DNA from: Bacteroidales bacterium
Lineage (GTDB): Bacteria > Bacteroidota > Bacteroidia > Bacteroidales > GCA-2748055
Length of the DNA stretch: 64,000 nucleotides
Assembly (NCBI GenBank): GCA_030589895.1
Contig: JAUUZQ010000002.1
Location: forward strand, 8,850-72,849
Reading direction: 5' to 3'
The translations under genes were made by a program, and so were the position numbers. Below are positions 12,638 to 46,196 of this stretch, in pieces. The first letter of the stretch is position 1; each line of letters opens with the position of its first letter. Under the pieces are notes generated by a model that was not told the origin of the DNA, made no database searches, and saw nothing but the letters and a program-made list of their open reading frames with translations.

Positions 12638-12661
12638 AATTATATTCTTTTTTTATAAATA

Positions 12662-12669
12662 CAAAAATA
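12662..12669 (-). promoter_or_regulatory. -7 box (TAnnTTTG on the minus strand) upstream of sucC
   Basis: The plus-strand caaaaata lies 25 nt upstream of the sucC start. Confidence 0.35.
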
Positions 12670-12704
12670 TTGTTTTTTTCACCATAGCTGCCATCTATAA
12701 TGAG

Positions 12705-12712
12705 TAATTTTG
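12705..12712 (+). promoter_or_regulatory. -7 box upstream of the TrmH-family gene
   Basis: taattttg lies 16 nt upstream of the ATG at 12728. Confidence 0.35.
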
Positions 12713-12727
12713 TAAAAAGTAGTAATT

Positions 12728-13270
12728 ATGAGAAAGCTTCTTAATGAAGAGTTAAAAAGACTCACTATTGAGTCATTCAAAAGTGCTGTTAAATTGCCCG
12801 TTGTCGTAATACTTGATAATGTCCGCAGTCTGAATAACATTGGTTCTGTATTCAGGTCATCCGATGCTTTCAGGGTGGAAGCAATCTACTTGTGCGGGAT
12901 TACTGCGCGGCCTCCTCATAAGGATATACATAAGACTGCTCTTGGCGCTACTGAGTCGGTCAGATGGGTTTATTTTGAAAACACACTTGATGCAGTAGGT
13001 GAATTAAAGAGCGATGGGTATGAGATTTTTGCCATTGAACAAACTGAAGAGAGTATAATGCTGGAAGAGATGGAGATATCCGGTGGGAAAAAGTATGCAT
13101 TGATCTTTGGACATGAGATGAGGGGGGTAGATCAGGATGTGGTGGATGCAGCTGAAAAGAGTATTGAGATTCCACAATTTGGAACAAAACATTCATTAAA
13201 CATTTCTGTTTCCGCAGGTGTTGTGCTTTGGGAGTTTTATCGCAAAATAGGAGGAGTCATTAATCCCTAG
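12728..13270 (+). CDS. SpoU/TrmH-family RNA 2'-O-methyltransferase
   Basis: The 180-aa product has NIGSVFRSSDAF, LIFGHEMRGV and SLNISVSAGVVLWE, the three SPOUT motifs. Confidence 0.75.
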   Translation: MRKLLNEELKRLTIESFKSAVKLPVVVILDNVRSLNNIGSVFRSSDAFRVEAIYLCGITARPPHKDIHKTALGATESVRWVYFENTLDAVGELKSDGYEIFAIEQTEESIMLEEMEISGGKKYALIFGHEMRGVDQDVVDAAEKSIEIPQFGTKHSLNISVSAGVVLWEFYRKIGGVINP

Positions 13271-13371
13271 AGTATGTTTTAACCTAAATGCTTAATCCAG
13301 GAATTGTCCGAATATACACGAATACTAACGGGCGCGAATTTCACAAATTAGTTTTCCGAACAATAATTATC

Positions 13372-13406
13372 AAAAAAAAGAGGATGCAATTTGCACCCTC
13401 TTTTTG
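13372..13406. terminator. bidirectional hairpin between convergent genes
   Basis: aaaaaaaagaggatgcaatttgcaccctcttttt is an imperfect palindrome flanked by an A-tract and a T-tract. Confidence 0.5.
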
Positions 13407-13427
13407 TTATATAAAATTACCTTGTAT

Positions 13428-15137: not shown

Positions 15138-15251
15138 AGCGATCTGGTTATTTGTTTTAATGTGTTCAAATTCTGAATTATTCTTCTGAATTACAAATTT
15201 AACAATGTTTTTCTTAAAATTAAAGAAATTAAGCGGATTTGCTAGGTTTTT

Positions 15252-15887
15252 CTATAATAAAACCATGTTCATCCCTGGATTGTACTCGTGATCGAATATA
15301 GCTTTCTTGACCTTCAGGTAATCATCAGGGTTGGCAATAAAGTCAATTTCGTTCATATCCAGCACGATAAATGTAATATCTTTCCTTGATTTAATGAACT
15401 CAAAGTATCCATCTTGTATTTGTGACAGGTACTTGGCCGTGATCTCCTTTTCATAGTCACGGCCTCTTTTCTTGATGTTCCTTAAAAGATTATCTGTATT
15501 GAGATGAAGATAGATATATAAATCAGGTAGAGGTAATTGTTGTTGTATAATATTGAATAATTGTTTGTAAAGCTTATACTCATCTTCTTTCAAGGTATTC
15601 TTACTGAAAATCAGGGATTTAATAAAGTAATAATCACTTACAGTTGTGGTTTGAAAGAGGTCTCTCGGGGTAATATCATTTTTCAATTGTTGGTATCGAT
15701 CAGCAAGAAAAGCAAGTTCTACAGGGAACGCATACCTGTCTGGTTCTTTATAAAATTTAGGAAGAAAAGGATTCTCTGCAAATTGTTCCAGGATCAGCTT
15801 CGAGTTGGTGTCTTCTGCAATTTTTTGAGCAAGTGAGGTTTTTCCTGCACCAATGTTTCCTTCTATGACCAGGTAATTAAATTCCAA
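15252..15887 (-). CDS. deoxynucleoside kinase
   Basis: It has a P-loop (IEGNIGAGKTSLA), a dNK-family ERS-like region and FLADRYQQ. Confidence 0.8.
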   Translation of the reverse strand: MEFNYLVIEGNIGAGKTSLAQKIAEDTNSKLILEQFAENPFLPKFYKEPDRYAFPVELAFLADRYQQLKNDITPRDLFQTTTVSDYYFIKSLIFSKNTLKEDEYKLYKQLFNIIQQQLPLPDLYIYLHLNTDNLLRNIKKRGRDYEKEITAKYLSQIQDGYFEFIKSRKDITFIVLDMNEIDFIANPDDYLKVKKAIFDHEYNPGMNMVLL

Positions 15888-15920
15888 GTTTTCGTTTAGT
15901 TAGAAATGGACATAAAAGTA

Positions 15921-15960
15921 AAAAACTTGTCAGGAATAACATTCTTCATGACAAGTTTTT
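15921..15960 (-). terminator. hairpin terminator downstream of the oligopeptidase relic
   Basis: A 12-bp perfect stem (aaaaacttgtca / tgacaagttttt) has a 16-nt loop. A/T tracts on both sides make it potentially bidirectional. Confidence 0.55.
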
Positions 15961-32254: not shown

Positions 32255-33961
32255 TCACTGAAAAAGCATTTTTCGATCTAGTTTTTCTCCTTCTCGATGC
32301 CAATCGCCCGGGACCAGGCTCCAGTTCAATAATGTATCCGGATTATAAGTTTCCTGATCAGCCAGATACCGCATTAAATGGTACCTTAAGTCAATTTGAG
32401 TTGCATGAACAATTCTCCCGGGTAACAAGTCTTTTTCGATTTTACTACCCATGGTCAGGTGTCCACCACCACCATTTCCCCTGTAGGAATTGATAGCAAC
32501 GAGGAAGGTATCACTTGCTGAAAATTCGGAGCCATCACTTTTTTGATGAATAGAGACCTTTTCTTCAACATGTTTTTGAAGATCAATGGTGTAATCTATA
32601 CCTGCTGCCGACGAGAAATTATAGTATTGATTCTGTAAACGGCTTCTGTTCTCAGGGTTAAGCAGAAGAAGATGATCATTTTTGCTGCTCATGGTATTGA
32701 ACCAAATTCCTGCAGCATGCTCAAGAAAACCATCAATTTCCTCTCCTGTAAGTTTCATTGTGTAGAGCATATTTTCAAAGCGGTACAATTTAAACATGTC
32801 AGAAACACATATTGGTCCGCTTTCAAGTATTGAATTAATAGCGAGAGGTGCGGTCAGTGAGATCTCTGCACCGGATTCTTTTAGTTGTACTTTATGGATT
32901 AATGAGATAAATGATGAAGGTCCAAACAGTCCATCGCGACTATACATAGGTGAACTTAATATGCTTACGGTATCTGAAAGATATGCTTTTACATCCTGAA
33001 ACTGAGGATCAAAAAGTGCTAAAAACTCAGGATCGGGTTCATACCTTGAGCACTTAACAAGCTTAGCTGCTATCTTTTTTTCCGGGGAAGAAAAATCTAT
33101 TAGAACTTCACCAATAGTTCTTGCGTGACTCCCGGGATCGATCACCAGAACGCTATCGCCTGAAACATTGATTATCCATTGCTTTGATAAGCGATGGTCA
33201 TGGCCGGCAAATATTATATCGAATCCGGGTACTTGTCTGGCAACCAATAAAGTGGCGTTTTCATTCATTGGGTCCTTTTCAGTTTTCCCTCCATATGTTG
33301 GATCTGTGCCTGAGTGAAAAAGACCTATCATTACATCAGGTTTTTCCTTCTTCAGAATAATGGGAACCCATTTTTGTGCTGTTTCGACCATGTCCTCAAA
33401 ACGGAGATCTGGCCATAGCGATTTTGGGAGCCAGTTTGGGATACCGGGTGTGATAAGTCCCAATACGGCAATTTTCCTACCTCCTTTTTTAATAATGGTA
33501 TAGGCTTGAAATCCCGGTTCATTTGTATGGATATTAATGGCGTTGGCAGCCAGCCATGGGAATTTAAATTCTTTTTCAATTTTATAATATACATCTGGAC
33601 CGGCTTCAATATCGTGATTTCCAACACTACCGGCATCGTAATCCATATAGTTCATTGCCTGGGCACTGATGTGGACAGTATCCTTTTTGATCGTGTTATA
33701 GTAATATACAGTGGGTTGTCCCTGCAGGAAGTCTCCATTGTCTAATAATACAAGAGAAGTATCTGAAGCTAAGCGTTGATTTTTCAGGTATGAACTTACA
33801 TGCGCCAATGAATGGTCTGCAGTCTCCATTTGTATCAGGTCCATGGGGTAAATCATACCATGAACATCTGTTGTAACTGCAATTTTAATATAATCACTTT
33901 TACTACAGGAATAAATAAGAAGAAGGGATAAGAATAATAATACGTTTCGAGATATTTTCAT
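32255..33961 (-). CDS. bifunctional metallophosphatase / 5'-nucleotidase (UshA-like), secreted
   Basis: It has a lipobox-like N-terminus, the TTDVHG, DNGDFLQG, GNHDIE and GHDH metallophosphoesterase motifs, and a C-terminal 5'-nucleotidase domain. Confidence 0.75.
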   Translation of the reverse strand: MKISRNVLLFLSLLLIYSCSKSDYIKIAVTTDVHGMIYPMDLIQMETADHSLAHVSSYLKNQRLASDTSLVLLDNGDFLQGQPTVYYYNTIKKDTVHISAQAMNYMDYDAGSVGNHDIEAGPDVYYKIEKEFKFPWLAANAINIHTNEPGFQAYTIIKKGGRKIAVLGLITPGIPNWLPKSLWPDLRFEDMVETAQKWVPIILKKEKPDVMIGLFHSGTDPTYGGKTEKDPMNENATLLVARQVPGFDIIFAGHDHRLSKQWIINVSGDSVLVIDPGSHARTIGEVLIDFSSPEKKIAAKLVKCSRYEPDPEFLALFDPQFQDVKAYLSDTVSILSSPMYSRDGLFGPSSFISLIHKVQLKESGAEISLTAPLAINSILESGPICVSDMFKLYRFENMLYTMKLTGEEIDGFLEHAAGIWFNTMSSKNDHLLLLNPENRSRLQNQYYNFSSAAGIDYTIDLQKHVEEKVSIHQKSDGSEFSASDTFLVAINSYRGNGGGGHLTMGSKIEKDLLPGRIVHATQIDLRYHLMRYLADQETYNPDTLLNWSLVPGDWHREGEKLDRKMLFQ

Positions 33962-34204: not shown

Positions 34205-34738
34205 ATGTTACTAAAGAAAACATTCATTATCGCTTTGTTGGCACTGTTTACTGGGAGTGTACTACAAGCCCAAAATTTCAAGTACATTGGTGCTGCCAAG
34301 TGCAAAATGTGCCATATGAAACCTGCTAAAGGCGAGCAATATAAAAAATGGCTGGAAGGTCCTCATGCCAGCGCTATGAAAACGTTGAGCGGAGATAAGG
34401 CAAAGGAAATTGCAGCTGCCAAAGGTATTGCTGATCCTGCTACAGATCCTGGTTGTCTGAAATGTCACTCAACATATGGTCATATTGATAGCAAGCTTGC
34501 TGCCGGACTAAAAATGTCTGAAGGAGTGTCTTGCGAATCTTGTCACGGACCCGGTAGTATGTACAAGAGTGCATCGGTTATGAAGAAACGAGATCTTGCC
34601 ATGCAAAAGGGAATGATACTTGCTACTGAGGAAGTGTGCAGAACTTGTCACAATGAGGAGAGTCCAACATACAAGCCATTTGATATGGCAAAGTTCTCTG
34701 CAGAAATTGCGCATCCTGATCCTACACAGGCTGATTAG
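34205..34738 (+). CDS. periplasmic tetrahaem c-type cytochrome (cytochrome c554-like small multihaem family)
   Basis: It has a signal peptide and four CXXCH motifs (CKMCH, CLKCH, CESCH, CRTCH) in 177 aa. Confidence 0.85.
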   Translation: MLLKKTFIIALLALFTGSVLQAQNFKYIGAAKCKMCHMKPAKGEQYKKWLEGPHASAMKTLSGDKAKEIAAAKGIADPATDPGCLKCHSTYGHIDSKLAAGLKMSEGVSCESCHGPGSMYKSASVMKKRDLAMQKGMILATEEVCRTCHNEESPTYKPFDMAKFSAEIAHPDPTQAD

Positions 34739-34761
34739 TATATACTGATTTAATAAGATAT

Positions 34762-34800
34762 AAAATCCTCTGGTTTCATAAACCAGAGGATTTTTCTTTT
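34762..34800 (+). terminator. rho-independent terminator after the tetrahaem cytochrome gene
   Basis: The palindrome aaaatcctctggttt cat aaaccagaggatttt is followed by tctttt. Confidence 0.7.
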
Positions 34801-34842
34801 CTTTAGCATTATATAAATAATTATCACTTAATCTTTAATACC

Positions 34843-35514
34843 GTGAGAAATATAGTATTTGCAATCTTGATCCTAATTGTTTTTTCTTGTAAAAGCAATG
34901 TCCCTGATGGATATATAAGCGTAATTGTAAAAGAAGTTGAACAGGTTGGAAGCTACACCTATTTGTTGGTAAAGGCAAAAGGACCGGAATATTGGATTGC
35001 AGTATCTTCAATGGATGCACATTCGAATGAGACTTACCAATATCAGGGAGGTTTGTTGATGCAGAATTTTTATAGCAAGGAACTTGACAGGACATTTGAT
35101 GAAATTCTATTTCTGGATAATATAATTGGCAGTTCTGAAACATCTGCAATGAAAACTAAGGATGTGACTCCGGGAAGTATGGTGAAAATTGAAAAATCTG
35201 ATGTTTCAGTTGAAGCAATAGCTGGTGCTGTGACTATCGCTGAACTATTTGCTAATCCTGGAAAATATGAGAATAAAACTATTCGTGTTAGTGGGGAGGT
35301 GACAAAATTTAATTCGGCCATTATGGAGCGTAACTGGACTCATATTCAAGATGGAACAGAACATGATGGAAAATTTGACCTGACCATTACTACAGTGGAA
35401 GTGTTTGAAGTGGGAACTACCGTTACAGTTGAGGGGGTATTGAAATTGAATCTTGATTTTGGTTATGGATACAGTTATGAGATCCTGCTGGAAAAAGCAA
35501 CTGTGGTTAAGTAA
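34843..35514 (+). CDS. lipoprotein with two OB-fold-like halves, function unknown
   Basis: It has a GTG start and a lipobox (LIVFSCKS). The second half (GKYENKTIRVSGEVTKFNSAIMERNWTHIQDGT...TVTVEGVL) looks OB-fold-like. It sits inside the cytochrome island. Confidence 0.5.
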   Translation: MRNIVFAILILIVFSCKSNVPDGYISVIVKEVEQVGSYTYLLVKAKGPEYWIAVSSMDAHSNETYQYQGGLLMQNFYSKELDRTFDEILFLDNIIGSSETSAMKTKDVTPGSMVKIEKSDVSVEAIAGAVTIAELFANPGKYENKTIRVSGEVTKFNSAIMERNWTHIQDGTEHDGKFDLTITTVEVFEVGTTVTVEGVLKLNLDFGYGYSYEILLEKATVVK

Positions 35515-35559
35515 CTGACCGCAGCTGAAAGACTATAATATTTTTTTATGGATTAAAGC

Positions 35560-38364
35560 TTATCCTTGTAAGAGAGAATAAATAATAAATCCAATCAGGG
35601 TAACACCGATCCCAAGTAACAGAAATCCAAAGAATTTAACGATTCGCATATTTTCTTTTGAAAATTTACGTCCGGACAATAATTTTTCCAGTTCACCTGT
35701 TTCTTTTAATTCCTCATATTCACGTGGACGTTCATGTTTGAAATGCTCTAATGGCATTTGTCCGGTGAATATAACTGTATCCATTGGGAATGCTTCCGGA
35801 CGAAAATGTGTATTAAAGAAGTGGATCGTAAAAATAAAACCTACTGCCAGCAGTGCTTCGTCGCTATGTATAATTTGAGAAATATTTATAGCCCATCCAG
35901 GGAGGAATTTTGTAAAAAAGATAGGGAACCAAAGCATTAGGCCACTGAGGCCGATCACGGCTACTCCCCAAAATACTGCCATATAATCAAACTTCTCCCA
36001 ATAGGTCCATCGACCATAGTTTGGTCTTGGACCTTTACCGACAAACCACTTCATTGTAGCTCCGAAATCTCTTATATCCTGCATATTAAACATCAGGGAG
36101 TTTTTGCCGAAAATGAATTTCATGGCAGATAATCTCTTTTGACGCTTATCCTTTATAAGGTTGTATACATGGTATGAAAAATATCCAAAAGTGATAACTG
36201 CCCCAAACCGGTGAATTACTCCTGCAGAATGAACACCTCCAATTAGCTTAGCAAGGAACTGGGCCCATTCCATATGGGCAAATTTTAACATCATTCCCGT
36301 CAGGGCCAATAGCATGAAACTCAGCATCACAAATATATGTGTAACCCTTTGGTTATCGCTGAACCTTCTGACAAAAATTTCTTCTTCTGGTTTAGGTTTT
36401 TTCTTTTTCTCCTTTATCTTCTTAAATCTTTCGTGCAATGATCTGGGCATCCATATGAGGAGATGGATGCCAAAGAAAATGAATACGCCCAATAGCAAGG
36501 TAGTCATGAAGATATAGGCGAAATGCAATCGAGGATCATCCTTGTGTGTTGCGTGACTAAGATAATTTGCAAATTTTTTGTTTGCCCCAGCATGGCAAGT
36601 TGCACATGTGTTCACAATATTCATTTGTGAAATTGTTGATTTAGGATTTGCCGCTTTCAGAATATTGTGGGCACCATGACAATCAGAACATCGAGCTGAC
36701 TCAAGAGAGCCAAGCTGGAATGCTTTTCCGTGATAGGTTTCCAGATAGGTTTCGGCGGTTTCCTCATGACAGGAGCCACATTGGCTTGTAACTTCATTCA
36801 TGAACTTATCCTGATCAACTTCAGAGATTACGTGTGCACTATGGCATTTAACACAAGTGGGATATTCCTTACCGTGATCATCCAGGGTAAATGCATGATC
36901 GCTCTCCATATATTGATCATAGATCCCCTTGTGGCAATTGCCACATGTTTTCTGAACATTGGTAGGATGGATTGACGATTGTTCATCAGTCTCTTTCAAC
37001 ATTAGGTGAGTTGTGTGACAGTCGGTACATACAGCACTTACTGTTAATCCTTTGCTTGTAAGTCCCTGTCCATGAACGCTTAATGAATAATCGGCAAATG
37101 CATTGATCTCTTTTAAATCTGTCGCCAGGGGGGCTTTCCCATCTTTTCGATGGCATTCACCACACAGTTTCGGTATAGCTGTTCTGTATACTGGTGATGT
37201 ATCATCATATCTCGATTTTGTGTCGTGGTCTCCGTGACAATCAGTGCAATAAGGTGCATTTTCCACCTCGTGGTAATGCGCCTGACCATGACCACTGGCA
37301 AAATACTTGTCAAATACCTCAGCGTGACATGAGGAACAATCGACCGGGGTATTTGTGGAACAGGGGCGTTTTAAATGATCAGTAACATTTGTATGACACT
37401 TGGAACATGGAATATTCTTATGAATTGAATTTGGCAGCTCAATTGGATTCACATAAAGTGATACTTTTTCATCCCCCAGCATTTTATGAATTTCTTCATC
37501 GGCATGGCATTTCATGCATGATTTGTCAGAAATCCTGGCCTGTATCATTGGCACATCGACTTTATGTGGAGGATGGCATGAGGAGCAGGAAGGAATAACC
37601 GATGGATCCTTTTCCCACAATTCTCCCTTGATGACCTTTTTATGAGTTTCTTCAATCCTGGTGTGACATTTCATGCATGTTCCGGCAATTCTGTTAGCTG
37701 ATATTGATGAATTTGGACTGGTATGAGGTAACACCAGATGGTTACCATGGCAATTGTTACAAGTTGCTGTGACGATCAATCCAGCTTCAAACAGACCTTT
37801 ACCATGAATACCCATGGTATAGTTTTCTACGATGTTATGTTCTGATACATCATAAGTGCGGGCAACAATCTCACCTTCTCTGTGGCATCTGCCACAAAGG
37901 AAAGGGATATTCATTTTATATGTTCTGGAAAGTGGATTACTGTTGTGCAGTATATCGTGGTTACCGTGACACTCTTTACAATCAGGAGCGTTAGAATCAT
38001 TCATTAGAAGAGCTTGCCCATGGATGCCCCTGGTATTATCCCTCATTGCATCAGTATGACAATTTCCGCAGTTTACGGGATTCAAATTTTCGAGATGTGG
38101 GAATCCTTCATCATCTGCATCAATGTGACATGAAATACAAGTGTTGCTATGGTGAACAGAGCCCTCAAAAATAGTTGTGTCAATAAACAATGATACAGTC
38201 CTTCCGTTCCGTTCTTTGGTTAAATCCGGATCTTCGTGACACATCATGCAATCTTCATCAGATTGAGCATAAATGTTTTCTGAAGTTGGGCCAATCAATA
38301 ATATTGAAATGAGCCACAGATACCTTGTAATAGCCAAGGTAGAATTGTAATAGCGTTTTATCAT
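35560..38364 (-). CDS. 19-haem c-type cytochrome fused to a C-terminal polytopic cytochrome-b-like membrane domain
   Basis: I counted 19 CXXCH motifs in residues ~38-600, many as CxxCHgxH pairs. These are followed by about 6 predicted transmembrane helices with conserved His (RVTHIFVML..., GVIHRFGAV..., [31 protein letters not shown]). Confidence 0.85.
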
Positions 38365-38684
38365 GGTGTAGCGTTATATTAGAGAACATACATTGTGTTA
38401 ATTCTCCCTTACACTAACAGTATCAAATTACTTAGAACTTTAATTTACAGTTTCCCTTTTTTAATTCGGTATAGCAACTACTGTGAATCAATTATCAAAA
38501 ATATTAAAATTATGGGTTTAAAAAAGTCAGGCTTGTCTTTCCCTGTTTTTCCAGCTAAGGGTAATAAGCAGGAGGAGTAGGGTGTAAGTTGCAAGGTAAG
38601 AGGGTGATATGGAAAATTCAGAAAGAAATTAGACTTGTTTTGTATGGTTTTAGAATGGTTATAAATTGATGGAGTTTAGTTTTT

Positions 38685-38766
38685 TATAGATATGTCGCTC
38701 CATGAGCTAAGGGGGAAGTGGGAAACTTGTGGGATATAGATATATCGCTCTTAGGAGATAAGGGGA
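38685..38766. repeat. two ~32-nt direct repeats spaced 50 nt apart
   Basis: tatagatatgtcgctccatgagctaaggggga (38685) pairs with tatagatatatcgctcttaggagataagggga (38735). Confidence 0.5.
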
Positions 38767-38780
38767 TTTTTAGATAAAAT

Positions 38781-38816
38781 CCCCGGGTAATCATGATCTG
38801 TTGTGATTACCCGGGG
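38781..38816 (-). terminator. terminator closing the upstream cytochrome operon
   Basis: A 13-bp perfect stem (ccccgggtaatca / tgattacccgggg) with a 10-nt loop is followed by a U-rich stretch on the minus strand. It lies 47 nt after the cytochrome b stop. Confidence 0.65.
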
Positions 38817-38862
38817 TTATGCTTGTAACAGTCTTTCCAGACTTAGTTATTTTAATTTTGTA

Positions 38863-39501
38863 TTAATCTTCCTCCTCTTCATCTTCTTCCACAAGGGCAT
38901 ATCCATTGACAATACTTTTAAAATTGGCAGATTTAGATGCGCCAATAGTACTAACATAGATATGTATGATCAGGAATAGGGAGAGGAAGAATCCTGTTGC
39001 CACGTGAAGAATATCGGTGATTAAGATTCCGCCTACACCAAAGGGAGCTTTCAATACAGATTCAGGAAACATAAGGCCCAATCCTGAAATAATCACAAAG
39101 GGAACAGCCAGATACATAATCATAATATAGGAAATATGCTGCAGAGGGTTGAATTTTCTTTTTTCTGTAATAGGAAAGGGCTTTTTCTCACCTTTAAACA
39201 TACCAAACATATAATACATACCTTGCTTAATCAATCGGTTTATAATTCCTTTCCATTTTGTTCTGTAGTAGCATCCGTTTTCAGTAAACAAGTTGGCAAA
39301 AAAGAATATCAAGTAGCTAAAACTCAGTACTATGCCTGTGAAATTGTGAAGTTTAACGGCCCACGAGAATTCTATCAGAGGTCTGCCTGGATCTGCATAA
39401 TACATGCTTATTCCGGTAGCAATAAGTAACAATATACAGAGGGCATTTAAGATGTGCCAAATTCTGATAATAAGTGGATAGTGATATGATAATTTTGACA
39501 T
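38863..39501 (-). CDS. cytochrome b (FdnI/HydC/PhsC-type, four transmembrane helices)
   Basis: YPLIIRIWHILNALCILLLIATGISMYY is typical of the bacterial cytochrome b561 / Ni-hydrogenase cytochrome-b family, with His residues in helices 1, 2 and 4 and an acidic tail (EEDEEEED). The start is moved to the ATG at 39501, 4 nt after the upstream stop. Confidence 0.8.
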   Translation of the reverse strand: MSKLSYHYPLIIRIWHILNALCILLLIATGISMYYADPGRPLIEFSWAVKLHNFTGIVLSFSYLIFFFANLFTENGCYYRTKWKGIINRLIKQGMYYMFGMFKGEKKPFPITEKRKFNPLQHISYIMIMYLAVPFVIISGLGLMFPESVLKAPFGVGGILITDILHVATGFFLSLFLIIHIYVSTIGASKSANFKSIVNGYALVEEDEEEED

Positions 39502-39505
39502 CTTT

Positions 39506-40492
39506 TTATTTTTTAAATATAATTCGTGCAACAATGTGAACTGAGATTCCGCCAAGGGTTAGAAGGAAGATCATAACGCCGGCGAAACTAAGTACTTTGT
39601 TCCTGTTGGCTCCGATCACATATGCTTCATTGAGAATGACTGCATTTACAAATCCTAATTTACCCCGGCTCTCTATTGCCTGGTGCTTATAGAGTGAACC
39701 CATAAGTATAGAGCTACTGGAGTGACATTCTATACAATTTCTCACTGCTAAATCTTTTGTTTGAACATGATGGGCAACAAGCACACTGTCTGACAATGAA
39801 GTATGGCACTCGATACATCTTACACTTCTAAAATGGGCAGCCTGATTTGGCAACCAGCTATGTGTATCCAGTAAATCAATTTCATCTTTGTCTGTAAGGA
39901 GTTCGAACCTGCTGAAATCTGAATGACAGGAGAGACAAATATCATTGTTATATGCAATGGCCTCTGTCACACTTTTTTCATCATCTCTTACAAAAGTCCT
40001 GTAGGAGTGGGGATCATGGCATTTCCAGCAAGTGAAATTATCCGGATTTGCGCTCATATGTATACTTTCCTGAAATTCCACCTCGATATCTTCAAAGTGG
40101 TATTGTGCATAATCTTCATCATAGCCATGACAGTCGAGACATGTAAAAGTTGGTTCGAGTCGCAACTCGTATGCATGAGGGAACACTTCATAGTCATATG
40201 AATGACAATCGAGGCAAGCAAAGCTTTTGTGTACCATGCTGTAATAATCATCTCTTTCGATGATTTTGTCGCGACACATGGATTGAGTGATTTCACGTTC
40301 CATCGACTCGTCTTTCAATATGTATTTTGATTCGCCATGACATCTTAAACATGCTTCATTCTCCACTACATAATCATTTACTTCCATGTATATTACAAGA
40401 GCCTCTGCCTTTTTAGCAGAGTCGGATTGTGCCGACAAGGTAGCTGAAGAAGCAATGAGAAGTACGTTCAATAAAATTAGAACTTTCTTCAT
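39506..40492 (-). CDS. heptahaem c-type cytochrome with a C-terminal membrane anchor
   Basis: It has a signal peptide, seven CXXCH motifs (CLRCH, CLDCH x2, CWKCH, CLSCH, CIECH x2) and a terminal hydrophobic helix (VLSFAGVMIFLLTLGGISVHIVARIIF). Confidence 0.85.
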   Translation of the reverse strand: MKKVLILLNVLLIASSATLSAQSDSAKKAEALVIYMEVNDYVVENEACLRCHGESKYILKDESMEREITQSMCRDKIIERDDYYSMVHKSFACLDCHSYDYEVFPHAYELRLEPTFTCLDCHGYDEDYAQYHFEDIEVEFQESIHMSANPDNFTCWKCHDPHSYRTFVRDDEKSVTEAIAYNNDICLSCHSDFSRFELLTDKDEIDLLDTHSWLPNQAAHFRSVRCIECHTSLSDSVLVAHHVQTKDLAVRNCIECHSSSSILMGSLYKHQAIESRGKLGFVNAVILNEAYVIGANRNKVLSFAGVMIFLLTLGGISVHIVARIIFKK

Positions 40493-40504
40493 ATCTGTTA
40501 AATT

Positions 40505-41338
40505 TTAAAATCTGATTGAAATATTGAATCCAAACTGGTAATCAAGACTAAATGGGTCATTTGTATTGTAGACCACATCATAGTTCTTTACGAGTGCATT
40601 ATAATTTGCAACGAAAACCCGGAAAGAGTGCGTGCTGGTTCCGATTTCAACTCCAAAGGACAAGTTGGGATAAATATCAACATTCTCAGCTGTATTCAAG
40701 GGTTGTTCGTATTCCAGGATAATAGCATGAAACCCCAGTACCTGGGCACGCAGACCACTGTAAATTGAGAAGTTTGCATTGTGAAACCCTTGCTCAACTG
40801 CATTTAACCATATAAATGTAGGAGCAATCTGGACGCCTATCTTTTCTCCAAATTTTCTTGAAACGATTATCTGATTCATGTAAGACAATCTGTGAGCGAA
40901 TTTGAATTCAGACGGAGGGCCGAAATTTGTTGATGAACTTGCATTAAGTACTGCATTACCAACATAACTTACTGAAACAGGCATTTTATTGGATTCTGTC
41001 TGTTGGAGTAAACTTATTTTCCATTCAAGATCCTGCACTGAATTTTTTCTGGTAGTTCCAAAACCAACCATAATTTTATCAGTTACTCCATAGTCAACAG
41101 CCATTCTGGTGTTGGCTGATCCATATATTCCAAAAAGATCACTGATGGATGCAATGGGGGCAAAGCGGTGTTGAATTTCAATATTTATTGAGCCTTTGTA
41201 AGGGTTCAGAGTTGTGTGATTGTCGATTAATGTAAGCGTTTCAAAAGGAGGATAGACAGTTTCATCCTGAGCAAAAATTGATGTGCTCCATAAACATCCA
41301 ACAATCAGGAAATTGATTAAAAAAAGTTTCATATTCAT
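40505..41338 (-). CDS. small outer-membrane beta-barrel protein (DUF5777-like as I recall)
   Basis: It has a signal peptide, alternating amphipathic strands, aromatic girdle residues and a C-terminal ...FNISIRF. Length is 277 aa. Confidence 0.6.
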   Translation of the reverse strand: MNMKLFLINFLIVGCLWSTSIFAQDETVYPPFETLTLIDNHTTLNPYKGSINIEIQHRFAPIASISDLFGIYGSANTRMAVDYGVTDKIMVGFGTTRKNSVQDLEWKISLLQQTESNKMPVSVSYVGNAVLNASSSTNFGPPSEFKFAHRLSYMNQIIVSRKFGEKIGVQIAPTFIWLNAVEQGFHNANFSIYSGLRAQVLGFHAIILEYEQPLNTAENVDIYPNLSFGVEIGTSTHSFRVFVANYNALVKNYDVVYNTNDPFSLDYQFGFNISIRF

Positions 41339-41364
41339 AATTGGGTTTGTATAATAATAATTTT

Positions 41365-41715
41365 TTAATTGCTTTTGTTTGCACCATTAGCAATCCAGCT
41401 GAGGATTGCCTCTTTCTGACCATTTGAAACATCATTGGAACTATGTCCATCGGTAGCTTTTACCAGAATGTAACTATCTTCCGGAGTTTGCTTATCAATC
41501 AGGGCACCTCCATTATATTGGGTCAGTGAGTTAAATACAGCTCCTTCAGTAAAATCAGGAGGAAGGAGGGAAGGGTGACAGCTTGAACACTTATCAACAA
41601 AGATCGGTTGTATATCATCCATGAAATCATCACCTATAGTAATTTCATATTTCTCACATGATTGAAAGCTGAACGTTAATAGTGCAAGGGTAAAAATTGA
41701 CAAAAATTTCTTCAT
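41365..41715 (-). CDS. monohaem c-type cytochrome lipoprotein
   Basis: The start is placed at MKKFLSIFTLALLTFSFQSCEK (lipobox). It has a single CSSCH motif in FVDKCSSCHPSLLPPDF. Confidence 0.6.
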   Translation of the reverse strand: MKKFLSIFTLALLTFSFQSCEKYEITIGDDFMDDIQPIFVDKCSSCHPSLLPPDFTEGAVFNSLTQYNGGALIDKQTPEDSYILVKATDGHSSNDVSNGQKEAILSWIANGANKSN

Positions 41716-41751
41716 ATTAGTAAGTGTTTTATTCTGCTGCTTGCTAAGCAT

Positions 41752-41759
41752 CAAAAATA
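41752..41759 (-). promoter_or_regulatory. -7 box upstream of the monohaem lipoprotein gene (operon promoter candidate)
   Basis: The plus-strand caaaaata lies 37 nt upstream of the ATG at 41715. It overlaps the longer ORF-track start, which supports the shorter gene model. Confidence 0.35.
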
Positions 41760-42275: not shown

Positions 42276-45200
42276 ATGGCAGGAATTGCAGCATACTTCT
42301 CTCTCACTTTATCAAGGCATAAGCAGCAATGGTCAACACGTATACTTATTTTTCTTATTCATCTCCTTATTTTTCCAGGTATCAGAACTTATGCCCAGTC
42401 TGAAACTAAATATGACGAAATATCTGTCTTTCTGGAAGTACCAAAGCTGGGGGCGAGAGAGATTGATGCTTTGATAAAGGAGAACGAGATTTTTTTGCCA
42501 GTAACTCACCTGTTTGATTTTTTAAATATTAGGAATATTCCTTCAACAGGATTCGAAACCATCACTGGCTACTTTATTGACAAGGAATCTTCTTATAGCA
42601 TTGACAGGAATAAAAATGAAATTCAATATGGTGGAAAATTATTTAAGCTCAAAGCAGGAGATCTGATCCACACTGAATCGAATCTCTATCTAAGAGCTTT
42701 TTATTTCGAAAAAATCTTTGGTCTCGAATGTATATATAGCTTCAAAGATCTTTCGGTTAAAGTTGAATCTCAACTTGAAATACCAGTCATCCGTGAAATG
42801 AGACAAGAAGACCTACGCGTCAATTTGAACCGTTTGACTAGTGAAGAAAAGGCAGATATTGAAATAAGAAGATTTTATCCATCGTTTAGATTTGGCATGG
42901 CCGACTGGTCAGTATTATCAACACAACAAATAAATGGACCGTCTGAGACAAGAATTAATCTAAGTCTTGGATCGGTTATAGTGGGAGGAGAAGCCACAGC
43001 ATCATTAAATTACAATAGCAATGAACCTTTTCAGGAAAGACAGCAACATTACTTGTGGAGATATGTAGACAATTATAACAGTACCCTGAGCCAGGTAACG
43101 GCAGGGAAAATCAGTCCCCTTTCCACATCTACTATTCTTGATCCTGTTGTTGGAGTCCAGTTCACCAATGCTCCAACAACACTAAGAAAATCATCCGGAT
43201 CGTATACACTTAGTGATATAACAGAACCAAACTGGATTGTGGAGCTATATGTAAATAATGTTCTGGTTGAATATGCCAAGGCTGATGCAGCTGGTTTTTT
43301 TACATTTGAGGTCCCTTTGGTATATGGAAATTTACCGCTCAAGTTAAAATTCTACGGTCCCTGGGGAGAAGAAAAATCAAGGGAGAGAGATATCTCACTC
43401 CCTTTTAGCTTCGTTCCAAAGGAAGTACTTGAGTACGATATAAGTGCAGGTATTGTTGAGGATTCTCTTCGCAGCAGGCTTCTAAGAACCAACATTAATT
43501 TTGGCGTTTCGAAAAATGTTACTATTGGGGCGGGGTATGAATATCTCTCCTCTGTCACTTCAAGTCCCGCGATGCCCTTTGTAAAAGGTTCATTTAGACT
43601 TGCTTCGAATCTCATCCTTTCAGGAGAACTTACTTACAAGGTGAGAGCAAAAAGTACACTTAGCTACAGACTACCCTCGAACATACAGTTTGACCTGAAT
43701 TATTCGAAATATAATAAAGAACAGCAGGCAATAAATCATAACTACCTGGAAGAACGTAATGTTTCGATTTTAATGCCAATTAGCCTTAATAGTTTCCATG
43801 TTTATAACAAGATGACTTTAAATCAGATTGTATTACCGACCACAGATTCTACTACTGCAGAATGGTTGCTTTCAGGTTCGTTATTTGGTGTAAATACGAA
43901 TATCACTACTTCTGGTTTATTTATTGGAGGCTCCGATCCATATGTATACAGCAAGCTCTCCCTCTCATACCGTTTTAAGTCTGGATTAAGAATTACGCCC
44001 ATGGCTCAATACGGGTATTCTGATAAAAGACTGATGTCACTAAAAATTGGATTGGAAAAAAAGTTGATTAAGCATGCTTATCTCAATCTGTCATTTGAAC
44101 AAGATTTTACACGCAATCTGCAGAATGCGGAACTTGGATTTCGTTACAACTTTAACTTCGCTCAAACAGGTATATCAGGCATACGATCAGAGAATAAAAC
44201 TTCCTTGGTTCAGTATGCAAGGGGAAGCATCATCAGTGACCGTAATACCAACTATTTTAAAGCAGATAAGATAAGCAATGTAGGTAAGGGTGGAATTACA
44301 ATCATTCCTTACTTTGATAAAAATTCAAATAGCAGAAGAGATTCAGGGGAAGCCAAAGTATTTGGATTAAACTTGCGTTCCAGCGGTGGGCAAATTGAGC
44401 GAATTGAACAAGATACGACTATTCGTATTCTGAGTCTTGAAGCCTATACAAAATGTATTATTGAATTTGATGATAGTGGATTTGAAAATCCTCCCTTGAA
44501 AATGAAAAACAGGACATATAGTGTGCATGTCGATCCAAATATGCTCAAGGTGATTGAAGTTCCCTTAAGTATAGCCGGTGAAGCTTCAGGCATTGTAAGG
44601 ATCAATTGGGGTGATGAGATAAGAGGGCTTGATGGTATAGTATCGCATCTCTATAACAAAGATCAAAAACTTGTTGGAAGGGTTTTTTCCAATATAGATG
44701 GTTCTTATAAGTTTGATGGTCTTTCTCTTGGATCTTATGTCGTTAGAATAGACAGTATTCAATTGCAAAGAATAGGCATGACCTGCACCCCTGATTCCAT
44801 CAAATTTGATATATCATCCGATTCAGGGGGAGCAACTGTTAATGGGCTGGATTTCTTGTTGGAGCTGACTCCAGAGCCACAAGAAGAGAAACCAGATTTA
44901 GTTGAAACCATCATTCCCGAACCTAAAGTTCAAATTACAAAGAGGGATTCAACATATATTAAGATACATGAATTGGTTCAGGAAGTTTCAGACACAACAG
45001 ACAGTTATGCCATACAGCTTGGGGCCTTCTCTAAGAGATCAAATGCAAAAGCATATAAAGAGAAGCTTGCAAAAGTCATTGACAGGGAAATCGAAATTAT
45101 AATTGAAAACGGCTTGTTCAAGGTTAGGGTATTGGATTTTGAATCCAGGAAAGAAGTGGATGAATTCATTCCGAAACTAAGTAATATCGGGGTCAAGGAA

Positions 45201-46196
45201 ATGTGGGTTATCAACCTGAAAGGAATACGCAAGCAGATGATGTTGATGACAGTTAGGGATACAATTACCGAAGTAATTGAAATAAGAACTGAGATGCTTG
45301 ATCCAAACGATCATTCAAACCTCAATATACAACTTGGTGCATTCAGGGATTCATCCAGAGCAGAAGCGCTAAGATTGAAACTTTCCAATTCCATTGATCA
45401 AGCTGTAATAATTATCAAGGAATTTGGCTACTTTAAAGTCAGGCTTACTGGATTCACTAAGCCAGAACAGCGGGATGCAATTATTCCTCAACTTAGCGAG
45501 CTGGGCATTAGTGATATTTGGGTATTGCCATATGATACAAGCCGTTATGAGACTGGAATAAGAGCTCAGGAGGAAGTTCTAATTGTAACAGAAACAGACA
45601 GCGTAATAGTAATTGAGGATGAGATATTAGAGCCACAGATAGCTGAAGAAGAGTTGCTTGAGGAGGAAGTGGTAGCTGAAGAAGAGTTGCTTGAGGAGGA
45701 ATTAGTTGAGGAAGAGGTAGCTGAAGAAGAGTTGCTTGAGGAGGAATTAGTTGAGGAAGTGGTAGCTGAAGAAGAGTTGCTTGAGGAGGAATTAGTTGAG
45801 GAAGTGGTAGCTGAAGAAGAGTTGCTTGAGGAGGAATTAGTTGAGGAAGAGGTAGCTGAAGAAGAGTTGCTTGAGGAGGAATTAGTTGAGGAAGTAGTAG
45901 CTGAAGAAGAGATTGAAGTGAAGTCACCCATTGAGGACATAAAAGTTGTGAAACCAATTATTGAACAACCAAGATTCTCTATTCAGGCTGGTGTATTTAC
46001 AGAGCTATCTGAGGCCAGAAGGGCTCAACGAAGGATAAAAAATAATTTGGGTCTACAGTCTGTTCTTGTTGAGGAGTATGATTATACCAGGGTAATTATT
46101 CCAGGATTCTATAAACGTGAAGACACCTATAAATACTACCCTGAGTTGGCAGGACTAGGTTACAGTAATATCATGGTCATTGAAAAAAGGAAATGA
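42276..46196 (+). CDS. 1306-aa envelope protein with a beta-rich N-terminal ~850 aa, a CarboxypepD_reg-like module, three SPOR domains and an acidic repeat linker
   Basis: The three SPOR-like units are YAIQLGAFSKRSNAKAYKEKL...FKVRV, NIQLGAFRDSSRAEALRLKL...FKVRL and SIQAGVFTELSEARRAQRRI. It also has LVGRVFSNIDGSYKFDGLSLGSYVVRI and an (AEEELLEEELVEEVV)n linker. Confidence 0.8.
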   Translation: MAGIAAYFSLTLSRHKQQWSTRILIFLIHLLIFPGIRTYAQSETKYDEISVFLEVPKLGAREIDALIKENEIFLPVTHLFDFLNIRNIPSTGFETITGYFIDKESSYSIDRNKNEIQYGGKLFKLKAGDLIHTESNLYLRAFYFEKIFGLECIYSFKDLSVKVESQLEIPVIREMRQEDLRVNLNRLTSEEKADIEIRRFYPSFRFGMADWSVLSTQQINGPSETRINLSLGSVIVGGEATASLNYNSNEPFQERQQHYLWRYVDNYNSTLSQVTAGKISPLSTSTILDPVVGVQFTNAPTTLRKSSGSYTLSDITEPNWIVELYVNNVLVEYAKADAAGFFTFEVPLVYGNLPLKLKFYGPWGEEKSRERDISLPFSFVPKEVLEYDISAGIVEDSLRSRLLRTNINFGVSKNVTIGAGYEYLSSVTSSPAMPFVKGSFRLASNLILSGELTYKVRAKSTLSYRLPSNIQFDLNYSKYNKEQQAINHNYLEERNVSILMPISLNSFHVYNKMTLNQIVLPTTDSTTAEWLLSGSLFGVNTNITTSGLFIGGSDPYVYSKLSLSYRFKSGLRITPMAQYGYSDKRLMSLKIGLEKKLIKHAYLNLSFEQDFTRNLQNAELGFRYNFNFAQTGISGIRSENKTSLVQYARGSIISDRNTNYFKADKISNVGKGGITIIPYFDKNSNSRRDSGEAKVFGLNLRSSGGQIERIEQDTTIRILSLEAYTKCIIEFDDSGFENPPLKMKNRTYSVHVDPNMLKVIEVPLSIAGEASGIVRINWGDEIRGLDGIVSHLYNKDQKLVGRVFSNIDGSYKFDGLSLGSYVVRIDSIQLQRIGMTCTPDSIKFDISSDSGGATVNGLDFLLELTPEPQEEKPDLVETIIPEPKVQITKRDSTYIKIHELVQEVSDTTDSYAIQLGAFSKRSNAKAYKEKLAKVIDREIEIIIENGLFKVRVLDFESRKEVDEFIPKLSNIGVKEMWVINLKGIRKQMMLMTVRDTITEVIEIRTEMLDPNDHSNLNIQLGAFRDSSRAEALRLKLSNSIDQAVIIIKEFGYFKVRLTGFTKPEQRDAIIPQLSELGISDIWVLPYDTSRYETGIRAQEEVLIVTETDSVIVIEDEILEPQIAEEELLEEEVVAEEELLEEELVEEEVAEEELLEEELVEEVVAEEELLEEELVEEVVAEEELLEEELVEEEVAEEELLEEELVEEVVAEEEIEVKSPIEDIKVVKPIIEQPRFSIQAGVFTELSEARRAQRRIKNNLGLQSVLVEEYDYTRVIIPGFYKREDTYKYYPELAGLGYSNIMVIEKRK
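45642..45911 (+). repeat. near-perfect 45-nt tandem coding repeat (one 33-nt copy, five 45-nt copies and a 12-nt partial copy)
   Basis: The unit gctgaagaagagttgcttgaggaggaattagttgaggaagtggta repeats head to tail, and copies differ only at 1-2 positions (gtg/gag/gta). Confidence 0.9.

Follow-up and report, generated by a model that had tools for sequence, protein, structure and literature searches.

The locus analysed here comprises seven adjacent genes, g1 to g7, at 34205-41759 of a 64,000-nt stretch of DNA from a Bacteroidales bacterium (GenBank assembly GCA_030589895.1, contig JAUUZQ010000002.1, positions 8,850 to 72,849 of the forward strand). This whole stretch is referred to as the window, and the upstream neighbour of g1 as g0. 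The seven genes probably form a branched, non-catalytic pathway that exports electrons, as in extracellular electron transfer (EET), and the net flow would be outward to low-potential extracellular acceptors. By homology and architecture, g5 together with g4, and g3 on its own, constitute two inner-membrane menaquinol:cytochrome c oxidoreductases. As judged by homology, this inner-membrane part is known and has already been reported in Bacteroidetes. Beyond the literature searched are the 8+8+3 build of the g3 haem arm, the side-by-side encoding of CbcBA- and CbcL-type (and, in relatives, ImcH-type) proteins, and the pairing of a g7-like lipoprotein with a DUF5777 barrel.

Haem motifs are concentrated in a locus that encodes no recognisable catalytic subunit

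A first-pass annotation of this DNA had described seven adjacent genes with 4+19+7+1 CXXCH motifs. All seven open reading frames (ORFs) are present at its coordinates, and the motif count agrees, with 4, 0, 19, 0, 7, 0, and 1 CXXCH in g1 to g7 and a total of 31. Neither CXXCK nor CX3-4CH was found in g1-g7 by motif count. Six-frame translation of the window yields only three CXXCH outside the cluster and two more antisense inside g3. Thus, the motifs are clustered far beyond chance. The GC content of the locus (0.36-0.41) is similar to that of its flanks, so that composition does not set the island apart. g1, g3, g5, and g6 have predicted cleavable signal peptides that end in AQ, while g2, g7, and the neighbour g0 carry lipoboxes.

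Pfam and NCBIfam profile searches reproduce the earlier domain assignments (C554, multihaem plus Ni_hydr_CYTB, Ni_hydr_CYTB, and DUF5777). Likewise, the claim that the island contains neither a CXXCK site nor a catalytic subunit is borne out by the motif count, by equivalog scores, and by the invariant distal histidines of g3 and g5 described below. Profile searches of the locus and its flanks found no catalytic subunit in the cluster or in the adjoining genes. Equivalog models for nrf, hao, otr, mcc, and Hmc reach 15-81 bits against the cluster compared to cut-offs of 134-400, and PhsC reaches 165 bits (cut-off 204); all these scores are far below threshold.

The haem arm of g3 is a tandem duplication with a three-haem remnant

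g3 (35560-38364, minus strand) encodes a 934-residue protein that is predicted to combine 19 c-type haems with a dihaem-b domain of six transmembrane (TM) helices. All 19 CXXCH lie between residues 39 and 591. Self-alignment resolves the haem arm into octahaem module 1 (residues 35-278; 37531-38262), octahaem module 2 (residues 279-522; 36799-37530), and a partial third module with three haems (residues 523-612; 36529-36798), which matches the stretch with haems 5-7 in modules 1 and 2. Modules 1 and 2 align without gaps at 33% identity, with a score of 402 compared to 40±6 for shuffled sequences, and all eight haem motifs are spaced exactly 244 residues from their copies. The haem arm is an 8+8+3 build, formed by tandem duplication of a 244-residue octahaem module and followed by a three-haem remnant.

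The membrane domain (residues 613-934; 35563-36528, minus strand) was delimited by hydropathy and by PF01292. A hydropathy scan scored four TM helices (618-636, 677-695, 795-813, and 914-932), and two further ones (~712-735 and ~826-853) were read by eye from the sequence, which brings the number to six. In profile searches, g3 matches several multihaem families and Ni_hydr_CYTB (PF01292; 32.0 bits, cut-off 30.1), while FdnI-type models reach ~32 bits and stay below their cut-offs. Matches to MtrC domain II/IV profiles in the locus are generic multihaem matches. Among 13 sequences of 60-100% identity, H634, H676, H718, H732, H833, H848, and H853 of the membrane domain are invariant. They are placed in or at the border of TM1-3, with three of them in TM5. 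The periplasmic part contains at least 21 invariant non-motif histidines for its 19 haems.

This architecture closely parallels CbcL, which carries nine N-terminal c-type haems, all bis-His ligated, followed by a six-TM HydC/FdnI-type dihaem-b domain with one histidine in each of TM1-3 and two in TM5. In Geobacter, CbcL is needed for acceptors below about -0.1 V. g3 shares the N-terminal multihaem c domain with apparent bis-His ligation and the six-TM HydC/FdnI-like domain with histidines in TM1-3 and TM5. In contrast, it carries 19 haems instead of nine in its 934-residue 8+8+3 chain, and its presumed partner is a c554-like tetrahaem protein, whereas CbcL is partnered by the trihaem PpcA. Given the difference in haem number, g3 belongs in the CbcL family without being an orthologue-grade copy of CbcL. 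At the sequence level, g3 was compared to G. sulfurreducens CbcL (WP_010940947.1) in the form of fragments machine-read from a supplementary alignment figure (PMC9129911). An 85-residue fragment aligns to residues 721-802 of the g3 membrane domain with 38 identities in 87 columns; its score of 169 lies ~24 standard deviations above that of shuffled sequences (33±5.6), and g3 and the fragment have the motif RW(T)YWEKFD..AVFWG in common. The alignment of a second, shorter fragment from the figure is not significant.

A survey of CbcL/MtrH/MtoC homologues covers 15 phyla and proteins of 416-1034 residues with 3-23 motifs (Zhong and Shi, 2018; PMC6295460). Its Table S2 lists PKP08298.1 from a Bacteroidetes metagenome-assembled genome (MAG) as a homologue with 913 residues, 19 CXXCH, and six TM helices. 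The motif spacing of PKP08298.1 equals that of g3, with a constant offset of 21-23 residues. The same table lists a 924-residue marine-sediment protein with g3-like spacing over the part of the row shown. By homology, g3 is therefore a catalogued member of the CbcL/MtrH/MtoC family, which is represented among Fe(III) reducers and among Fe(II) oxidisers. An exact-protein look-up returned no record identical to g3, and PDB sequence searches with g3, g4, and g5 gave nothing close, the matches being to NrfB, c554, and OcwA-type fragments.

More than 4,186 g3 homologues were scored, of which the top 120 are all ~890-960 residues long and 60-80% identical to g3. Relatives are encoded in at least 597 stretches of a species-level genome collection, distributed over Bacteroidota, Calditrichota, Ignavibacteria/Chlorobiota, Acidobacteriota, Aminicenantes, Zixibacteria, KSB1, Eisenbacteria, Latescibacterota, Gemmatimonadota, and Myxococcota, and Maribellus sp. 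YY47 is a cultured carrier. The synteny counts given below refer to the best 80 of these at least 597 g3-anchored stretches, numbered as loci with the prefix L. Exactly 19 CXXCH are found in 72 of the 76 long (at least 850 residues) multihaem ORFs of these 80 loci.

g5 and g4 resemble the quinol oxidase CbcBA

g5 (39506-40492, minus strand) encodes a heptahaem cytochrome c that resembles CbcA. It begins with a signal peptide, and a TM helix occupies residues 300-318 near its C-terminus. Its seven CXXCH are accompanied by exactly seven invariant non-motif histidines among 23 sequences, and profile searches match it to multihaem families. H319, at the end of the C-terminal TM helix, is invariant in 23 homologues and would be available as a ligand for a b-type haem. 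Since the distal histidine set is complete in g3 and in g5, the haems of both look like bis-His electron-transfer centres rather than catalytic sites.

g4 (38863-39501, minus strand) encodes a CbcB-like dihaem cytochrome b of ~212 residues with four TM helices, matching PF01292 (Ni_hydr_CYTB) with 87 bits. Its best NCBIfam match is the thiosulfate-reductase cytochrome b PhsC (165 bits, below the cut-off of 204), and H34, H70, H184, and H198 are conserved in 92% of 24 sequences. An apparent overlap between g4 and g5 is an artefact of a TTG start. The likely start is the ATG at 39501, because the overlap then vanishes and the 207-residue homologue in locus L081 fits. This start lies 4 nt from the g5 stop codon, and a hairpin with a 16-bp stem starts 47 nt after g4.

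CbcBA of Geobacter, a low-potential quinol oxidase, consists of the heptahaem CbcA, whose C-terminal TM helix carries a histidine, and the four-TM dihaem CbcB, which is annotated as 'thiosulfate reductase'-like. In the operon, cbcA precedes cbcB, a terminator follows, and the gene of the sigma-54-dependent regulator BccR is adjacent. g5 and g4 share the seven haems, the C-terminal TM histidine, the four-TM cytochrome b, the order A-B, and the terminator. They thus match all testable published features of CbcA and CbcB except the adjacent regulator, as no BccR-type sigma-54 regulator is encoded beside g5/g4 in the window. Further differences are that three conserved histidines are reported for CbcB compared to four in g4, and that the cbcA-like gene is preceded here by genes for a monohaem lipoprotein and a DUF5777 barrel. 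According to the authors who described CbcBA, clusters homologous to it are present in Prolixibacter, Marinilabiliales, and Labilibaculum.

A monohaem lipoprotein is paired with a predicted outer-membrane barrel

g6 (40505-41338, minus strand) encodes a DUF5777 protein of 277 residues with a signal peptide, which matches PF19089 over the full model length (211.3 bits, cut-off 23.1). The AlphaFold2 model (mean pLDDT, predicted local distance difference test, of 79) is a 12-stranded β-barrel of ~250 residues. Foldseek relates it to the 12-strand outer-membrane barrels NanC, KdgM, FapF, OMPLA, and Tsx at template-modelling scores of ~0.5. In the model, the residues facing the lumen are polar and include seven acidic and eight basic side chains. 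A haem bound inside the barrel by the invariant H55 and H235 was considered and rejected: by strand alternation both residues point to the hydrophobic, lipid-facing side, and by strand direction they lie at opposite ends of the barrel.

g7 (41365-41715, minus strand) encodes a monohaem cytochrome c lipoprotein of 116 residues with the motif QPIFxxxCSSCH. Its start is assigned to the ATG at 41715, because the corresponding Met14 of the listed ORF starts all 22 family members and the lipobox residue C33 is invariant. Apart from its single CXXCH, g7 has no significant match to a profile family. In 19-20 of 24 loci, the gene immediately preceding DUF5777 is g7-like.

When 1.84 billion representative proteins, clustered at 50% identity, were searched with a profile, 1,459 DUF5777 clusters had E ≤0.001, of which 938 reach E ≤1e-10. 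Nearly all members are stand-alone proteins of 275-320 residues. Exceptions are P0375, a tandem double barrel, and P0482, in which a class-I monohaem cytochrome c is fused to the N-terminus of the barrel. The cytochrome domain of P0482 is 29% identical (E 6e-21) to a monohaem cytochrome encoded directly 3' of DUF5777 in L020, L032, and L033.

Representatives spaced through the hit list (L083-L087) were sampled for their genomic context. In L083, a gene for a Reeler-domain protein with CXXCH and a type IX secretion system (T9SS) tail precedes the cytochrome c::DUF5777 fusion P0482, which is followed by a g7-like lipoprotein (23% identical to g7, E 1e-7). The neighbourhood of P0482 (L083:5457-7947) is otherwise non-respiratory, with lpxD, lpxC, lpxA, efp, and sucD. 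In L084, DUF5777 is followed by Fer4_11, one further gene, and NrfD, and in L085 the order is EB_dh lipoprotein, g7-like lipoprotein, DUF5777. L086 encodes a divergent T9SS protein with CXXCH and the series g7-like lipoprotein, DUF5777, Fer4_11, NrfD, cytochrome c, while L087 contains a Crp-type gene, a collagen-repeat EB_dh lipoprotein, a cytochrome c, and the series g7-like lipoprotein, DUF5777, Fer4_11. The g7-like proteins of L085 (3561-3989), L086 (3520-3960), and L087 (3528-3911) carry CX4CH (e.g. CNMSGCH) instead of CXXCH.

What recurs is thus a series of four: a likely surface haem protein, followed by a small monohaem lipoprotein, a DUF5777 barrel, and a quinol module of the inner membrane. 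This recurrence across DUF5777 contexts is the strongest argument that g7 and g6 belong to an envelope-spanning redox system. No mention of DUF5777 or PF19089 was found in the literature searched, against which the g7-like lipoprotein and DUF5777 barrel appear, from their gene contexts, to be a new and widespread outer-membrane pair.

Two known outer-membrane systems provide the closest comparisons. Cyc2 is a single polypeptide of at least 365 residues, in which an N-terminal monohaem domain is fused to a 16-strand porin whose pore is entered by Fe2+. It carries AXPXFAR[Q/K][T/Y] five residues upstream of CXXCH and PXL four residues downstream. Like Cyc2, g7 and g6 pair one c-type haem with a small outer-membrane barrel, and the fusion in P0482 is N-terminal as in Cyc2. 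In contrast, g7 and g6 are encoded by two genes (116 and 277 residues), the barrel is predicted to have 12 strands rather than 16, g7 is a lipoprotein, and the pair is linked to quinol modules of the metal-reducer type. The Cyc2 motif is absent from g7, which reads DDIQPIFVDK-CSSCH-PSLLPP and shares P-x-F alone, at a different spacing.

With MtrCAB and Pcc systems, the cluster shares the presumed task of linking periplasmic haems to the exterior. In MtrB, a barrel of 26 strands forms a sheath around a decahaem protein, and the 20 haems of MtrCAB span 185 Å. In contrast, g6 has 12 strands, and neither an MtrA-like nor an MtrC/OmcA-like decahaem protein is encoded here. A role of g6 as an Mtr/Pcc-type sheath was rejected, the 12-strand barrel being too narrow.

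g1 is a predicted c554-family cytochrome and g2 a poorly conserved lipoprotein

g1 (34205-34738, plus strand) encodes a predicted secreted, soluble tetrahaem cytochrome c of 177 residues with a signal peptide ending in ...LQAQ. With its four CXXCH, it matches PF13435 (Cytochrome_C554) at 62 bits (cut-off 20.8) and Nitrosomonas c554 (PDB 1bvb) at E 1.2e-8. Like cytochrome c554 of Nitrosomonas europaea, g1 belongs to the c554 fold family and possibly contains a haem without a conserved sixth ligand. In contrast, it is not an orthologue, as it scores 56 bits against the CycA equivalog model NF043010 (cut-off 400), has 177 residues, and lacks a hydroxylamine oxidoreductase nearby. The conserved non-motif ligands for its four haems are limited to H54, H170, and M126. 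A g1-like gene adjoins g3 homologues in 33 of the 80 loci.

g2 (34843-35514, plus strand) encodes a lipoprotein with the lipobox VFSC. Its structure model consists of two small β-barrel domains, an SH3/GW-like and then an OB/DUF5818-like barrel, with a disordered linker between them. Profile matches to GW/SH3-like families and DUF5818 are weak, and Foldseek aligns g2 to tandem-OB proteins with a template-modelling score of only ~0.25. The earlier description as OB-fold-like therefore applies only loosely. The family comprises 725 homologues. g2 is found in six of the 80 g3-anchored loci, mostly within ~2 kb of g3 and at ~7 kb in L034, and additionally in L081.

The core of the cluster is conserved and extended in relatives

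Among the 80 loci, g7-g6-g5-g4-g3 is colinear in ~20, which belong to Prolixibacteraceae, Draconibacterium, Maribellus, and several other Bacteroidota and Chlorobiota MAGs. Neighbour frequencies were counted in those 43 loci in which g3 is flanked by 5 kb or more on each side. ImcH-like proteins are encoded in 19 of them, a multihaem lipoprotein termed c6 in 16, CbcB-like and DUF5777 proteins in 15 each, g7-like proteins in 14, Crp/Fnr regulators in 13, CcsBA in 8, and g2-like proteins in 5. Fuller clusters follow the order Crp/Fnr, c6, g7, g6, cbcA-like, cbcB-like, g3, ImcH-like, c554-like, CcsBA. The g7-g6 pair adjoins g3 homologues even without cbcBA (L032-L034), and in L012 the barrel adjoins g3 without a g7-like gene. 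In L004 and L036, a sigma-54 response regulator and a histidine kinase with a haem motif are encoded beside the cbcBA-like genes.

The ImcH-like neighbour (500 residues) matches NapC/NirT and combines three TM helices with seven haem motifs, a CX3CH immediately behind TM3 and six CXXCH. It resembles Geobacter ImcH, a NapC/NirT-like protein of 507 residues with three TM helices in its first 130 residues and seven haems, in having the same three TM helices, seven motifs, and a length of ~500 residues. Homologues of all three Geobacter EET quinol oxidases are thus adjacent in many genomes of the FCB group (Fibrobacterota, Chlorobiota, and Bacteroidota), and two of them are present in the window. 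In Geobacter, by contrast, the genes of CbcL, CbcBA, and ImcH bear distant locus tags (GSU0274, GSU0593-0594, and GSU3259). No paper describing side-by-side CbcBA/CbcL/ImcH-type genes was found in the literature searched. In Maribellus sp. YY47, cbcA-like, cbcB-like, 19-haem cbcL-like, and imcH-like genes stand in a row (L023:4759-18353). The same order occurs in L007, L013-L019, L021, L024, and L041 (Prolixibacteraceae, Draconibacterium, and Maribellus), and this row is bordered by a gene for a Crp/Fnr regulator and by one for the cytochrome-maturation fusion CcsBA.

c6 is present in 23 loci (e.g. L023:5591-6715 and L001:17632-18780). These lipoproteins contain 5-6 CXXCH, are encoded just upstream of the g7-like gene, and carry Gly-X-Y collagen-like repeats directly after the lipidated cysteine. 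c6 may be a stalked cell-surface cytochrome.

Locus L081 (JGI 3300031645 contig, 134,952 bp; positions 9626-15947) has the same flanks as the window and contains g7-g6-g5-g4 and g2-g1, but lacks g3. Consequently, g3 is a separable module. Loss of g3 from L081 is the simpler reading, because g3 follows the cytochrome b gene in L001, L002, and Prolixibacteraceae. The L081 spacer in place of g3 contains a 9-bp tandem repeat (GTCAATGAG / GTTAATGAG). An alignment of the g4-g3 spacer to L081 was abandoned as a guide to the deletion end points, the sequences being too diverged to place them.

In the closest GTDB relative (L001), a rhodanese-domain protein (L001:14267-15250) and a 9-10-haem cytochrome are encoded beside the c554-like gene, as they are in L038 and L042. 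The rhodanese-decahaem pair hints at a link to sulfur compounds in some clusters. In L049, L051, L064, L070, L072, L075, and L079, g3 homologues stand beside trios of Rieske protein, cytochrome b, and 9-haem cytochrome. These loci come from Aminicenantes, Ignavibacteria, Calditrichota, and Acidobacteriota and also encode 11-17-haem cytochromes of 650-830 residues.

Proposed electron path and competing explanations

In the proposed mechanism, g5/g4 and g3 would oxidise the quinol pool and load electrons onto periplasmic haem chains. If extended, the 19-haem arm of g3 could reach roughly 15 nm, as scaled from MtrCAB, and could bridge much of the periplasm. g1 would serve as a soluble periplasmic electron carrier and g2 as an accessory lipoprotein. 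In the least certain step, the chain would end at the outer membrane with the monohaem lipoprotein g7 and the 12-strand barrel g6. As g6 is too narrow for a multihaem protein, the likeliest arrangement follows Cyc2 in principle: g7 would place its one haem at the mouth of the narrow, polar g6 channel and exchange electrons there with a small redox species passing through, for example Fe or Mn in dissolved or chelated form, or an organic shuttle. The cytochrome of P0482 is N-terminal and would therefore be periplasmic, which fits this mouth-of-channel model. Alternatively, g6 might anchor or export surface haem lipoproteins. In relatives, the collagen-repeat lipoprotein c6 is probably the cell-surface end; the window is without c6. 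Electron export would let a fermentative Bacteroidota bacterium shed reducing equivalents in anoxic cold-seep sediment.

Direction and acceptor are suggested by the roles of CbcBA and CbcL in Geobacter, by the anoxic seep origin, and by the reduction of Fe(III) and Mn(IV) in Labilibaculum. Isolates of this genus (Marinilabiliales) reduce Fe(III) and Mn(IV) oxides while fermenting. The cluster sequence was found in cold-seep and marine-sediment metagenomes. The first-pass annotation had proposed a pure electron-wire system assembled from CbcL and CbcBA building blocks, which the feature matches between g3 and CbcL and between g5/g4 and CbcA/CbcB support. As for the outer membrane, which it named as a possible reach of the system, g6 models as an outer-membrane barrel, but one too small for an Mtr/Pcc-type conduit. 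That such systems are little characterised in Bacteroidota is correct experimentally, but their homology has already been published. Similarly, synteny upholds the core g7-g6-g5-g4-g3 as co-conserved, whereas the seven genes are not a fixed unit, given the rarity of g2, the absence of g3 from L081, and the four additional genes of fuller clusters.

Several observations weigh against this interpretation. The functions of all cluster proteins are assigned in silico, and the direction of flow is not fixed by sequence, because the CbcL family also occurs in Fe(II) oxidisers. The direct comparison of g3 to CbcL relies on machine-read figure fragments, and g5/g4 were likened to CbcA/CbcB by published description and not by the sequences of GSU0593/GSU0594. 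The conserved histidines of g1 are predicted to be too few for four bis-His haems, and one g1 haem could be five-coordinate, as in c554, and hence reactive. According to the barrel model, 12 strands and one haem cannot alone wire the ~3-nm outer membrane. The window is without a plausible cell-surface multihaem terminal reductase, and tblastn detected none of the Crp/Fnr, c6, ImcH-like, and CcsBA genes of the fuller clusters in its 64 kb. Moreover, g3 is dispensable in the close relative L081. The locus is predicted to form at least three transcription units, not one operon, since hairpins follow g4 and separate g1 from g2, and a 498-bp spacer between g4 and g3 provides g3 with an upstream region of its own. 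Three metatranscriptomes of the same study contain no contigs matching the cluster; being shallow and limited to contigs, they are not evidence of silence.

An unlikely alternative to electron export is that the cluster serves the periplasmic respiration or detoxification of a soluble compound (e.g. nitrogen oxide, polysulfide, thiosulfate, or metalloid oxyanion). Here, g6 would admit the substrate, and a distant partner or the five-coordinate haem of g1 would perform catalysis. The two conserved non-motif histidines and one methionine of g1 are what one five-coordinate haem would predict, the best named match of g4 is a thiosulfate-reductase cytochrome b, the closest relative L001 has rhodanese and decahaem genes beside its c554-like gene, and modules of the NrfC/NrfD type, which are used by many periplasmic reductases, often stand behind DUF5777. 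However, neither the cluster nor the genes beside it, here and in the 80 related loci, encode a catalytic subunit, equivalog models for nrf, hao, otr, mcc, Hmc, and Phs all score far under their cut-offs, the haem domains of g3 and g5 have the full distal histidine set, and the operons of relatives encode likely surface haem proteins. Reversal of the flow, which we consider improbable, would turn the chain to electron uptake, with Fe(II), a syntrophic partner, or a cathode-like mineral as the source. g7 would oxidise Fe2+ or a reduced shuttle inside the g6 pore, and electrons would travel via g1 and the haem arms to the CbcL-like and CbcBA-like proteins, which would work as quinone reductases, as proposed for MtoC in Fe(II) oxidisers. 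CbcL, MtrH, and MtoC occur in Fe(III) reducers as well as in Fe(II) oxidisers with no sequence feature to separate them, a single-haem cytochrome with a small barrel follows the logic of the Fe(II) oxidase Cyc2, and a cytochrome c::DUF5777 fusion exists. Yet g7 and g6 show none of the Cyc2 hallmarks, being unfused, built with 12 strands, devoid of the signature motif, and shorter than 365 residues. Uptake is also at odds with the low-potential quinol oxidase function of Geobacter CbcBA, with the anoxic seep-sediment habitat and a 64-kb window in which neither terminal oxidase nor nitrate reductase was seen, and with Labilibaculum isolates that reduce metal oxides and do not oxidise iron.

It is very unlikely that the genes are mere neighbours in three independent units, with g7/g6 acting outside respiration as a device for lipoprotein export or anchoring or as a channel for nutrients such as haem or iron. 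Slam barrels, for instance, adjoin the genes of their surface-lipoprotein cargo. The hairpins and the 498-bp spacer divide the locus, g3 is missing from the syntenic L081, g2 is rarely conserved, and DUF5777 genes also occur away from CbcL and CbcBA, namely beside lpx, efp, and sucD in L083 and beside YceI elsewhere. Against independence, every sampled DUF5777 context with enough flanking DNA contains haem proteins, quinol modules, or both, DUF5777 is once fused to a cytochrome c, g7, g6, g5, and g4 follow each other at distances of only 26, 12, and 4 nt, and the g7-g6 pair adjoins g3 homologues even where cbcBA is missing (L032-L034). Electron export thus remains the preferred reading. It is possible, and proposed here tentatively, that the g7-like lipoprotein and the DUF5777 barrel represent a third type of outer-membrane electron-transfer module beside Mtr/Pcc and Cyc2, widespread in Bacteroidota and FCB relatives. 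Such a module would plug into interchangeable CbcBA, CbcL-like, ImcH-like, or NrfCD-type modules and pair with collagen-stalked multihaem lipoproteins, EB_dh lipoproteins, or T9SS-anchored Reeler cytochromes. In the present locus, it would be fed by the 19-haem inner-membrane arm, which would reach it without soluble carriers.

Anoxic sediments harbour marine fermentative Bacteroidota (Marinilabiliales, Prolixibacteraceae, and relatives) in large numbers, and some of these bacteria reduce Fe(III) and Mn(IV) oxides. The cluster is the obvious candidate for this activity, and the g3 family is present in ~600 or more species-level genomes. The g7-like and DUF5777 pair could explain how bacteria without Mtr or Pcc systems connect to the outside. 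If true, EET could be traced in metagenomes with better marker genes, and bioelectrochemical engineering would gain a compact conduit. As cultured carriers exist, the hypothesis is directly testable.

Transcription signals and neighbouring genes

The hairpin between g1 and g2 (34762-34794) has a 15-bp stem and is terminator-like on both strands. An Rfam scan of 33.8-42.4 kb gave a single match, below threshold, on this hairpin (trpB motif, 33 bits compared to a gathering score of 59, E 0.14). Directly 3' of g4 lies the GC-rich, terminator-like hairpin with a 16-bp stem (38781-38816, minus strand). The element TATTTTTG, which we take to be the Bacteroidota -7 consensus, occurs on the minus strand at 38496-38503, ~139 nt upstream of the g3 ATG, and at 41752-41759, 44 nt upstream of the g7 ATG. 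The latter is likely the promoter of g7-g6-g5-g4. TATTTTTG is enriched about twofold in the window (17 copies, 8.4±2.8 expected). Sites include 12662, 23782, 26804, 34006, 38496, 41752, and 42228, and many lie a few tens of nt upstream of ORF starts. This enrichment and placement fit a Bacteroidota -7 promoter element. Sigma-70 promoters were considered as well and set aside in favour of the Bacteroidota-type -7 motif, as they are not enriched across the window (35 matches, 31.7 expected).

Profile searches agree with the earlier description of the flanking genes as housekeeping. They encode acyl-CoA carboxylase subunits, the UshA/CpdB-like lipoprotein g0, a 1306-residue SPOR-domain protein, SSB, and GcvP. 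g0 (32255-33961, minus strand) and g1 (34205-34738, plus strand) are divergently transcribed. g0 matches the N-terminal positions 51-210 and g1 the C-terminal positions 400-512 of NF041198 ('UshA-like (seleno)protein'). Since they match separate regions of this model, a fusion of a phosphoesterase to a c554-like tetrahaem domain appears to exist elsewhere. A role of g0 as a hidden catalytic partner was rejected, because it looks CpdB/UshA-like rather than SoxB-like and its adjacency to g1 is kept only in L002 and L081. As these are close relatives with the same overall gene order, the adjacency is judged coincidental.

The ORF at 42276-46196, which encodes the 1306-residue SPOR/RlpA-like protein, contains a 45-bp tandem repeat at 45663-45911 (5.5 copies, 97% matches). 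The repeat encodes an acidic repeat of the EEELLEEELVEEVVA type and is accompanied by long antisense shadow ORFs.

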